Origin: an uncultured Eggerthella sp.
GTDB lineage: Bacteria; Actinomycetota; Coriobacteriia; Coriobacteriales; Eggerthellaceae
Length of the DNA: 64,000 bases
Direction of reading: 5' to 3'
Assembly: GCA_900540345.1 (NCBI GenBank)
Contig: UQFK01000001.1
Location: 215,386-279,385 of the forward strand
The notes beneath the pieces were generated by a model that was not told the DNA's origin, ran no database searches, and saw nothing but the letters and a program-made list of their open reading frames with translations. The position numbers and the translations under genes are program-made. Positions 39,185 through 40,132 of the stretch are shown in pieces (position 1 is the first letter of the stretch; each line of letters begins with the position of its first letter).

Positions 39185-40132
39185 ATGGCAACACTGCACG
39201 ACATAGCACGTCGCATCAATTCGGTCGATTCGACGCGTAAGATCACCTCAACCATGGAGATGGTCGCGCGCACGAAAATCTTCCGCGCGCAACGACGCGT
39301 GCATCGTGCTGAGCCTTATGCGCGCTTCATGCGTGAGATGCTTACAAACATGGCTGATGAATATGCCGAATCTGTACCACTCGCAACACCTCATGACGAA
39401 GTGAAGAATACGCTCATCATTGTGATCGCATCTGATCGCGGACTGTGCGGACATTTCAATAACGACGTATTGCGCCTTGCTGAACAGCGCATTCGTATCT
39501 GTCAGAAGGAAAACAAGCATTTCAAGTTGATCCTGTGCGGTAAAGTTGCGGTGAAGTTCTTTAAATACAAAGGTTATACGCCCATCCAAGCCTTCACCGA
39601 TCAATCCGCATCGCCCACGGTCGAGCAAGCTGACGGCATTGCCGACTATCTGGTTGAAGCATACCTTGCAAACGAAATCGACGAGGTCTTCGCGATCTAC
39701 AACCATCATCGTGGCGCCCTGACACAGATTCCTGTCGAGTGGCGCTTGATGCCTATCGACATGGCAGCCTTTGATCCTCATCATGTACATCTCGGTCGTA
39801 GTGGCATCAGCGAGAGCGACCCACGCTTAAAGCATCTGATGGGTCGTATTGAATACGAACCGAATCGCGAATACGTGCTTGAGCGTATGCTACCTGAGTA
39901 CTTATCAGGCTATGTGTACTACATGCTCATCAATTCTGCGGCAGGTGAACAGGTCGCACGTCAGGTCGCGATGCGCAGTGCGACCGATAACGCAGATGAG
40001 ATCTTGGGTGAGCTGAAATTGCTCTACAATCACATACGCCAAGACGCGATCACGACAGAGCTCAACGAGATCGTTGGTGGCGAAGAAGCGATCGAGGCTG
40101 AATTCCGCCCAAGAACGCGCAAAGCATTCTAG
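39185..40132 (+). CDS. atpG: F1 ATP synthase gamma subunit homolog, a lone gene outside any atp operon.
   Basis: N-terminal coiled-coil (IARRINSVDSTRKITSTMEMVARTKIFRAQRR), IASDRGLCGHFN, and C-terminal AMRSATDNADEILGELKLLYNHIRQDAITTELNEIVGG. GAGGGGGAT RBS. Confidence 0.85.
   Translation: MATLHDIARRINSVDSTRKITSTMEMVARTKIFRAQRRVHRAEPYARFMREMLTNMADEYAESVPLATPHDEVKNTLIIVIASDRGLCGHFNNDVLRLAEQRIRICQKENKHFKLILCGKVAVKFFKYKGYTPIQAFTDQSASPTVEQADGIADYLVEAYLANEIDEVFAIYNHHRGALTQIPVEWRLMPIDMAAFDPHHVHLGRSGISESDPRLKHLMGRIEYEPNREYVLERMLPEYLSGYVYYMLINSAAGEQVARQVAMRSATDNADEILGELKLLYNHIRQDAITTELNEIVGGEEAIEAEFRPRTRKAF

Follow-up and report, generated by a model that had tools for sequence, protein, structure and literature searches.

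A lone atpG paralog in the split S10 operon

The window, by which we mean the whole 64,000-nucleotide stretch analyzed here, carries at 39185..40132 (+) an intact coding sequence, stop codon included, that begins with ATG and encodes a 315-aa orphan paralog of the ATP synthase gamma subunit AtpG, hereafter gamma-prime. Both of its neighbors lie on the opposite strand: a convergent nudC gene for NAD+ diphosphatase (40207-41178, −; NF001299, 171.6 bits against a cut-off of 158) and a divergent gene for a class-I SAM methyltransferase (MTase; 38231-39010, −). Gene order in the S10 ribosomal-protein operon is among the most conserved in bacteria; here, an insertion of about 4.5 kb (37329-41805) splits rplW (41806-42090, −) from rplB (36462-37328, −) and contains four unrelated genes, namely nudC, gamma-prime, the MTase gene, and a small 93-aa ORF (37866-38147, −) with no Pfam or NCBIfam match. 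The same split between rplW and rplB is found in Anaerotardibacter muris and in a third species, represented by locus L102. The window locus also recurs at 99.9-100% identity in independent human-gut metagenome contigs, where the exact gamma-prime protein is present.

The initial annotation had described a lone gene, antiparallel to a methyltransferase gene and nudC within an S10-operon insertion, and both the ORFs and the profile matches bear this out. It had also stated that the window holds no further atp genes; when the eight canonical Eggerthellaceae operon proteins (AtpB, E, F, H, A, G, D, and C) were used as tblastn queries against the 64-kb window, only gamma-prime was matched, in agreement with that statement.

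We then looked at the signals that could organize transcription and translation across the insertion. A strong intrinsic-terminator-like hairpin (41698..41731, −), with a 14-bp stem and a T tract, lies directly after rplW and is predicted to end the rpsJ-rplCDW transcription unit before the insertion; its stem is kept in L102 and partly in A. muris. Promoter-like sites were seen upstream of nudC (41247..41275, −; TCGTCA-17-TATAAT, with the TATAAT conserved in all three species) and, by consensus scan, upstream of rplB (37446..37474, −; TTGAAA-17-TATACT), from the latter of which transcription of the distal half of the S10 genes would resume. Gamma-prime itself has a Shine-Dalgarno-like GAGGGGG (39176..39182, +) 2 nt 5′ of its ATG, conserved in L102, and this is preceded by a 5′ intergenic block (39081..39184, +) that aligns between the window species and L102 (TTTGAACGATAGCAGAATAaTGATGACAAGTAG.CCACCTT ... 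TTTTTGCTACTCTAA ... CTTGAGGGGGAT) and that presumably holds the gene's own promoter and leader. The consensus scans found no sigma-70-like promoter upstream of gamma-prime and no terminator in the 74-bp convergent gap between gamma-prime and nudC, a gap that folds no better than shuffled sequence (z = 0.86). An Rfam search of window positions 36000-44000 at a permissive E-value gave no match.

The 93-aa ORF probably encodes a genuine small protein. Its homologues in L102 and A. muris have 112 aa and 56 aa, respectively; all three share the conserved C-terminal motif FRDITEDDDGYHPYADVPDTRPLFE.NPW but vary in the length of their N-terminal part.

Gamma-prime belongs to the F1 gamma family

Every sequence and fold test applied places gamma-prime in the F1 gamma family. 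Its match to Pfam PF00231 (ATP-synt) reaches 282.1 bits (E = 8e-84; cut-off 39.9) and spans profile positions 1-285 of 285, and that to NCBIfam TIGR01146 (ATPsyn_F1gamma) is full-length with 271.1 bits (cut-off 194.45). An AlphaFold2 model (pLDDT 85, pTM 0.76) has the fold expected of the family, i.e., long terminal helices at residues 4-56 and 228-307 and a beta-alpha-beta core at 75-189. The best Foldseek matches to this model are solved gamma chains of mycobacterial F-ATP synthases (TM 0.80-0.90), and the best match by sequence to a solved structure is the Mycobacterium smegmatis gamma 6foc_G (phmmer, E = 1.8e-48). The family assignment that had been made from the letters alone is therefore upheld by the profile matches and the fold model, and the peptide DNADEILGELKLLYNHIRQDAITTELNEIVGG cited in its support is present in the ORF.

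Thus, in full-length homology, fold, and signature motifs, gamma-prime resembles canonical bacterial AtpG proteins such as those of M. smegmatis (6foc_G, 7njk_G). Unlike these, however, it does not lie between atpA and atpD or in any atp cluster, and it coexists with a canonical gamma (see below); operon position and being the sole copy are the two features of a housekeeping atpG that it lacks. It also runs past the end of canonical gammas in the alignment, with a basic C-terminal extension (40094..40129, +; ...AIEAEFRPRTRKAF). The tail motif, RP[RK]xRKxF, is conserved in the CAG-1427 subclade only, and in the AlphaFold2 model the helix stops at residue 307, with low pLDDT in the tail beyond.

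Two known kinds of additional gamma were also considered. N-ATPase gammas (TIGR03323) are, like gamma-prime, second gamma-family genes in genomes with a standard F1Fo, and they lie in a complete second operon, atpDCQRBEFAG. We rejected this identity: gamma-prime reaches only 81.8 bits against the TIGR03323 cut-off of 282.35, has no subunit genes beside it, and, in contrast to N-ATPase gammas, is derived phylogenetically from the local canonical gamma. Extra gamma-like proteins outside the housekeeping ATP synthase are also encoded in the F1-like X0 ATPase clusters of Mycoplasma (types 2 and 3), together with the clusters' own alpha- and beta-like paralogs; since such alpha/beta paralogs are absent near gamma-prime, it is not part of a mycoplasma-type cluster.

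A canonical atp operon with its own gamma

The gamma of F1Fo is normally single-copy and locked into its operon, and ordinary Eggerthellaceae gammas indeed lie inside atpBEFHAGDC, flanked by sua5-rpiB-glyA-dCMP deaminase and dnaE-truA. For a gamma gene standing alone, the initial annotation had offered two readings, a relocated essential gene or a paralog co-opted for another function. The closest named relative is A. muris (about 80% identity), whose genome has been placed by GTDB in the Eggerthellaceae genus “CAG-1427” (bioRxiv 10.1101/2022.03.07.483007); the window species falls in this genus, CAG-1427/Anaerotardibacter, as well. In the A. muris isolate assembly GCA_943192915.1, the orphan lies on CALPCD010000001.1 in the same context as in the window (rplW-nudC-[gamma]-MTase-rplB), and CALPCD010000002.1 carries a complete atpB-E-F-H-A-G-D-C with its own 305-aa gamma and the same rpiB-glyA-dCMP-deaminase synteny as in other Eggerthellaceae. 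Because both loci are present in one isolate assembly, the closest cultured relative has the orphan in addition to an operon gamma; in A. muris, it is a paralog, a second gamma gene, as the second of the two readings had it, with co-option for another function a possibility discussed below.

For the window species, what ties the canonical operon to the window locus is that the two occur in one metagenome and agree in GC and in divergence, rather than a shared assembled genome. The JGI metagenome 3300039323 contains both L002, which is 99.93% identical to the window, and L021, a CAG-1427-type atpA-G-D-C contig whose gamma is intact at 305 aa. The GC content of L021 is 0.503, against 0.507 for the window and 0.55 for both A. 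muris contigs, and divergence from A. muris is similar for L021 and the window locus (64-99% amino-acid identity across genes). A further gamma, P0023, 50% identical to the window protein, also proved canonical, its gene being flanked by atpA and atpD fragments on L015, a short contig with a low GC content (50.7%); with the AtpD fragment from L015 as query, the best match was “F0F1 ATP synthase subunit beta [Anaerotardibacter muris]” at 95% identity. In all, gamma is present in 11/11 atp operon loci recovered from the low-GC clade.

These findings bear directly on the reading in which gamma-prime is a relocated sole atpG, such that the operon of the window species would lack a gamma and gamma-prime would be the only central stalk. 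In its favor, the 64-kb window has no atp operon, and the canonical operon of the window species was not seen on the same assembly. Yet both copies are present in A. muris, where the locus is built identically, an atpA-G-D-C contig with an intact gamma and matched in GC and divergence co-occurs with the window locus, and no low-GC-clade operon recovered lacks its gamma. We consider a relocated sole gene extremely improbable and reject this reading.

An old duplication now found in several gene contexts

Homologs of the window protein fall into two groups, a series that runs from 92% down to about 53% identity and the ordinary Eggerthellaceae gammas at 41-48%. To place orphan gammas relative to operon gammas, we built a neighbor-joining tree of 94 gammas, comprising 12 orphans, 11 low-GC canonical gammas (A. 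muris, L015, L021, and L023-L030, including Eggerthella sp. CAG:209 and CAG:368), and 71 other Coriobacteriia sequences. The orphans were monophyletic in 100/100 bootstraps and grouped with the low-GC canonical gammas in 99/100, while in 0/100 did they fall inside the CAG-1427 canonical group. Orphans and low-GC canonical gammas also have in common a loop insertion, F.P....F..GG-I.E.D...L.G.IEYEP, that other Eggerthellaceae are without, and the GC content and codon usage of gamma-prime are native. The tree position, the common loop insertion, and the native GC and codon usage together indicate that the gene arose by an old duplication within the genome, at the base of the subclade, and is not of foreign origin. 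Horizontal transfer from a distant phylum was considered and is ruled out by the native GC and codon usage and by the sister position of the orphans to the local canonical gammas.

We propose that atpG was duplicated in an ancestor of the low-GC Eggerthellaceae subclade (CAG-1427/Anaerotardibacter, CAG:209, CAG:368, and relatives) and that the duplicate then moved about the genome, reaching the gap between rplW and rplB in the CAG-1427 branch. Orphan gammas were found in at least six unrelated gene contexts. In addition to the S10 insertion of the window species, L102, and A. muris, these include an antiparallel position in an argH/argG/argD/argB cluster (L022), a site adjoining aspS, an ArsR-family gene, a P-type ATPase gene, and an amino-acid symporter gene (L031), a site next to PPDK (L009/L010), and one next to genes for a phenolic acid decarboxylase, an ACP, and a LysR regulator (L018). 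No atp gene was found within 10 kb of the orphan in L001, L006, L009, L018, L022, L031, or L102, as judged by tblastn or called genes, and nudC does not adjoin the orphan in L022, L031, L009, or L018. Across the orphan contexts, neither a common upstream motif nor a conserved partner gene was found; a 196-aa ORF placed after the orphan in L009/L010 has no counterpart elsewhere. Among the matches listed in a genome scan with the gamma alignment, which include neither A. muris nor the window species, 78/80 Coriobacteriia gamma loci were in operons and two were orphan loci.

Some of these contexts have features of their own. In L022 (9233-12287; MAG DOME_MAG_8833), the antiparallel orphan between argH and argG-argD-argB, inside a conserved biosynthetic cluster, mirrors the antiparallel position within the S10 genes of the window, and it is followed by a clear bidirectional terminator hairpin. 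In L009, at about 9530-9640, two direct copies of a roughly 35-nt element (CCCGGCAAT.CT.TCAGGCATG.TAATG.TGC) lie in the promoter region of an orphan gamma of 54% identity.

Gamma-prime is maintained by purifying selection

Between the window species and its L102 ortholog (92% amino-acid identity), gamma-prime has a dN of 0.042 and a dS of 1.05-1.21, i.e., an omega of 0.035-0.040; nudC and the MTase gene on either side have higher dN values. Gamma-prime is thus under purifying selection. Since dS is saturated beyond this pair, only dN was used for other pairs. For the window species and A. muris, dN is 0.166-0.175 for the orphan, compared with 0.011-0.013 for canonical atpG (omega about 0.02), so that amino-acid change in the orphan has been about 13 times faster than in the canonical gamma of the same species pair.

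Two orphans depart from the intact form. In A. muris (L006, 10001-10990), the position of the window's ATG reads ATC, and a deletion has removed about 80 bp of the 5′ region, including most of the block conserved between the window species and L102. Translation is annotated to begin farther upstream, at an in-frame TTG behind AAGGAAG, so that the protein gains 14 N-terminal residues. In L031 (10001-10950; MAG UMGS431), the orphan is frameshifted into ORFs of 232 aa and 98 aa, and essentially the same protein, P0015, is found intact at 316 aa in 61 member sequences; the frameshift is either an assembly error or a strain-level pseudogene. L031 aside, the orphan frame is intact in lineages down to 53% identity.

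Faster evolution than the canonical copy, the L031 frameshift, and the ATG-to-ATC change in A. muris are what would be expected if gamma-prime were a redundant duplicate drifting toward a pseudogene. This reading is nonetheless hard to reconcile with an omega of about 0.04, with a dN below that of the flanking genes, with frames kept open in every lineage but one, with the intact P0015 form, or with the alternative TTG start and its Shine-Dalgarno sequence in A. muris. Hence, of the outcome that would have counted against the initial annotation, a canonical operon with its own atpG beside a decaying pseudogene, the first part holds, but the second does not, the orphan being intact, constrained, and kept across a deep clade. 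A decaying pseudogene is, in our judgment, highly improbable, and we reject this reading as well.

Codon usage gave an indication of how strongly the gene is expressed. With the window's ribosomal-protein genes as the reference, the codon adaptation index (CAI) of the orphan is 0.58, resembling that of nudC and panBC, compared with 0.70 for canonical atpG, 0.77 for atpD, and 0.75-0.79 for ribosomal-protein genes. Because its CAI is low, we suggest that gamma-prime may be made at a low or conditional level.

The gamma signature is kept, while the shaft has diverged

We next compared orphan and canonical gammas residue by residue. An alignment of 82 canonical Coriobacteriia gammas has 71 columns with ≥95% conservation, and 51 of these columns are each retained in ≥90% of orphans. 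The retained segments include the N-terminal KIT.TMEMV, DRGL.G.FN, ATDNA, YN..RQ..IT.E..EI..G, and YEP. In their general form (KIT.xM.MV, DRGLxGxFN, ATDNA, YNxxRQxxITxExxEIxxG, and [FY]EP), they are invariant across orphans and canonical gammas (sets A1 and A3), with R22S and R283H as the exceptions. We take KIT.TMEMV to correspond to the segment around Escherichia coli gamma M23, RQ..T.E to the beta-contacting residues R268/Q269/T273/E275, and YEP to the Y205-E208 foot region at the epsilon/c-ring interface.

Gamma-prime is only 44-51% identical to the canonical gammas of its own family, from which it differs by its faster evolution and by swaps fixed at canonically invariant positions. Eight swaps are clade-wide in the orphans: R22S, A30T, L67A, K121V, L189M, D250N, R260Q, and R283H. 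Thus, the near-universally basic R/K22 and R/K283 have become S and H, respectively, throughout the orphan clade; both positions are basic in the aligned M. smegmatis chain and presumably also in E. coli gamma. A further 19 positions are invariant in the orphans only, many of them in the foot and the loop. The largest loss of conservation is in the shaft: segments buried in alpha3beta3 are 70-74% identical within orphans vs. 93% within low-GC canonical gammas. Conservation of the foot-proximal segment 223-262 is equal in the two (81% within orphans vs. 82% within canonical copies).

A candidate alternative central stalk of the ATP synthase

The best explanation, to which we give an even chance, is that gamma-prime is an old atpG paralog that would provide the same F1Fo with an alternative central stalk at low levels or under certain conditions. 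According to this model, a single, independently transcribed gene is kept beside a complete atpBEFHAGDC with its own gamma and would be expressed from its own promoter at low or conditional levels. The product would take the place of canonical gamma as the central stalk, using the same single set of alpha, beta, epsilon, and c subunits, and the resulting F1Fo isoform may have altered coupling or regulation, for example, a shifted balance of ATP synthesis vs. ATP-driven proton pumping or inhibition. We infer both the assembly of gamma-prime into F1Fo and any regulatory consequence from sequence. The kept gamma signature, the conservation of the foot, purifying selection, the low CAI, and the gene's own Shine-Dalgarno sequence and antiparallel position speak for an alternative stalk; the weakly kept buried coiled coil, the 13-fold faster change, and the L031 frameshift speak against it, and the losses of basic residues together with the six further swaps could reflect a different partner rather than a tuned fit.

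There is a precedent for such an arrangement in dicot chloroplasts, where two gamma paralogs with different regulatory properties serve one ATP synthase (PMC5522872). The closest functional analogy to gamma-prime would be this gamma1/gamma2 (ATPC1/ATPC2) pair, in which two separately encoded gammas, one dominant and one minor, are used with one alpha3beta3 (PMC5522872); this is a chloroplast feature, and a similar role for gamma-prime is suggested by analogy. The chloroplast pair differs in having arisen by an independent eukaryotic nuclear duplication and in that its regulatory difference is a redox-sensitive Cys loop; a redox Cys pair of the chloroplast type is absent in gamma-prime.

The main rival, which the same divergence also fits, is a neofunctionalized gamma, one that has another partner or state and no longer serves the membrane F1Fo. 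Such a protein might act in a soluble alpha3beta3-gamma-prime ATPase uncoupled from Fo, as an F1 decoy or assembly regulator, or as the shaft of a different hexameric ATPase. In its favor are the marked drop in conservation, relative to canonical gammas, of the shaft contacting alpha3beta3, the clade-wide loss of basic residues (R22S, K121V, R260Q, and R283H), the 19 positions invariant in orphans only, the basic C-terminal tail of the CAG-1427 branch, the 13-fold faster protein evolution, and the low codon adaptation. The universal gamma signature is kept, however, including the catch residues and the YEP foot motif. Moreover, apart from the P-type ATPase gene beside the L031 orphan, the 10 kb around the orphan contain no alpha/beta-like or other ATPase gene in the contexts examined, and a second alpha/beta set was not seen among the best AtpD relatives, in a search not designed for divergent paralogs. 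Neofunctionalization in this sense is therefore possible but doubtful. The more specific proposal that gamma-prime defines a second machine or regulatory state, be it a soluble or differently coupled alpha3beta3-gamma-prime ATPase or the shaft of another hexameric ATPase, we consider rather unlikely.

If gamma-prime is indeed an alternative stalk, a stand-alone bacterial paralog, kept clade-wide under purifying selection, would mean that some gut anaerobes can swap the stalk of their ATP synthase or, on the neofunctionalized reading, have given its shaft a new job. A swapped stalk could alter how an enzyme at the heart of anaerobic energy conservation is coupled, in which direction it runs, or how it is inhibited. 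Were gamma-prime instead part of a second machine, it would be the first example in bacteria of a lone F1 rotor subunit acting in its own right, long maintained in slow-growing gut Eggerthellaceae. To our knowledge, rotor isoforms are known from plant chloroplasts only, and these data suggest that gamma-prime is a previously undescribed bacterial “alternative rotor.” Literature searches for a bacterial atpG paralog, a second copy, or the Eggerthellaceae ATP synthase returned no description of gamma-prime and no stand-alone bacterial gamma paralog, their coverage being incomplete and the result an absence of evidence only. Because a carrier, A. muris, is in culture, the function of gamma-prime is directly testable. 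For annotation, a label of “ATP synthase F1 subunit gamma” on a gamma-prime gene says nothing about where the real operon lies.

Additional observations

Elsewhere in the window, ARAGORN called a 95-nt tRNA-Ser(cga) at 4792-4886 (+), inside and antisense to an 896-aa ORF (3261-5951, −); the tRNA call may be wrong, or the long ORF may not be a real gene. Among the loci recovered, L027, L080, and L098 are titled Escherichia coli, Ruthenibacterium lactatiformans, and Alloprevotella sp. (“cleanbin” isolates), respectively; all three carry Coriobacteriia-type atp operons and are probably mislabeled or contaminated bins.
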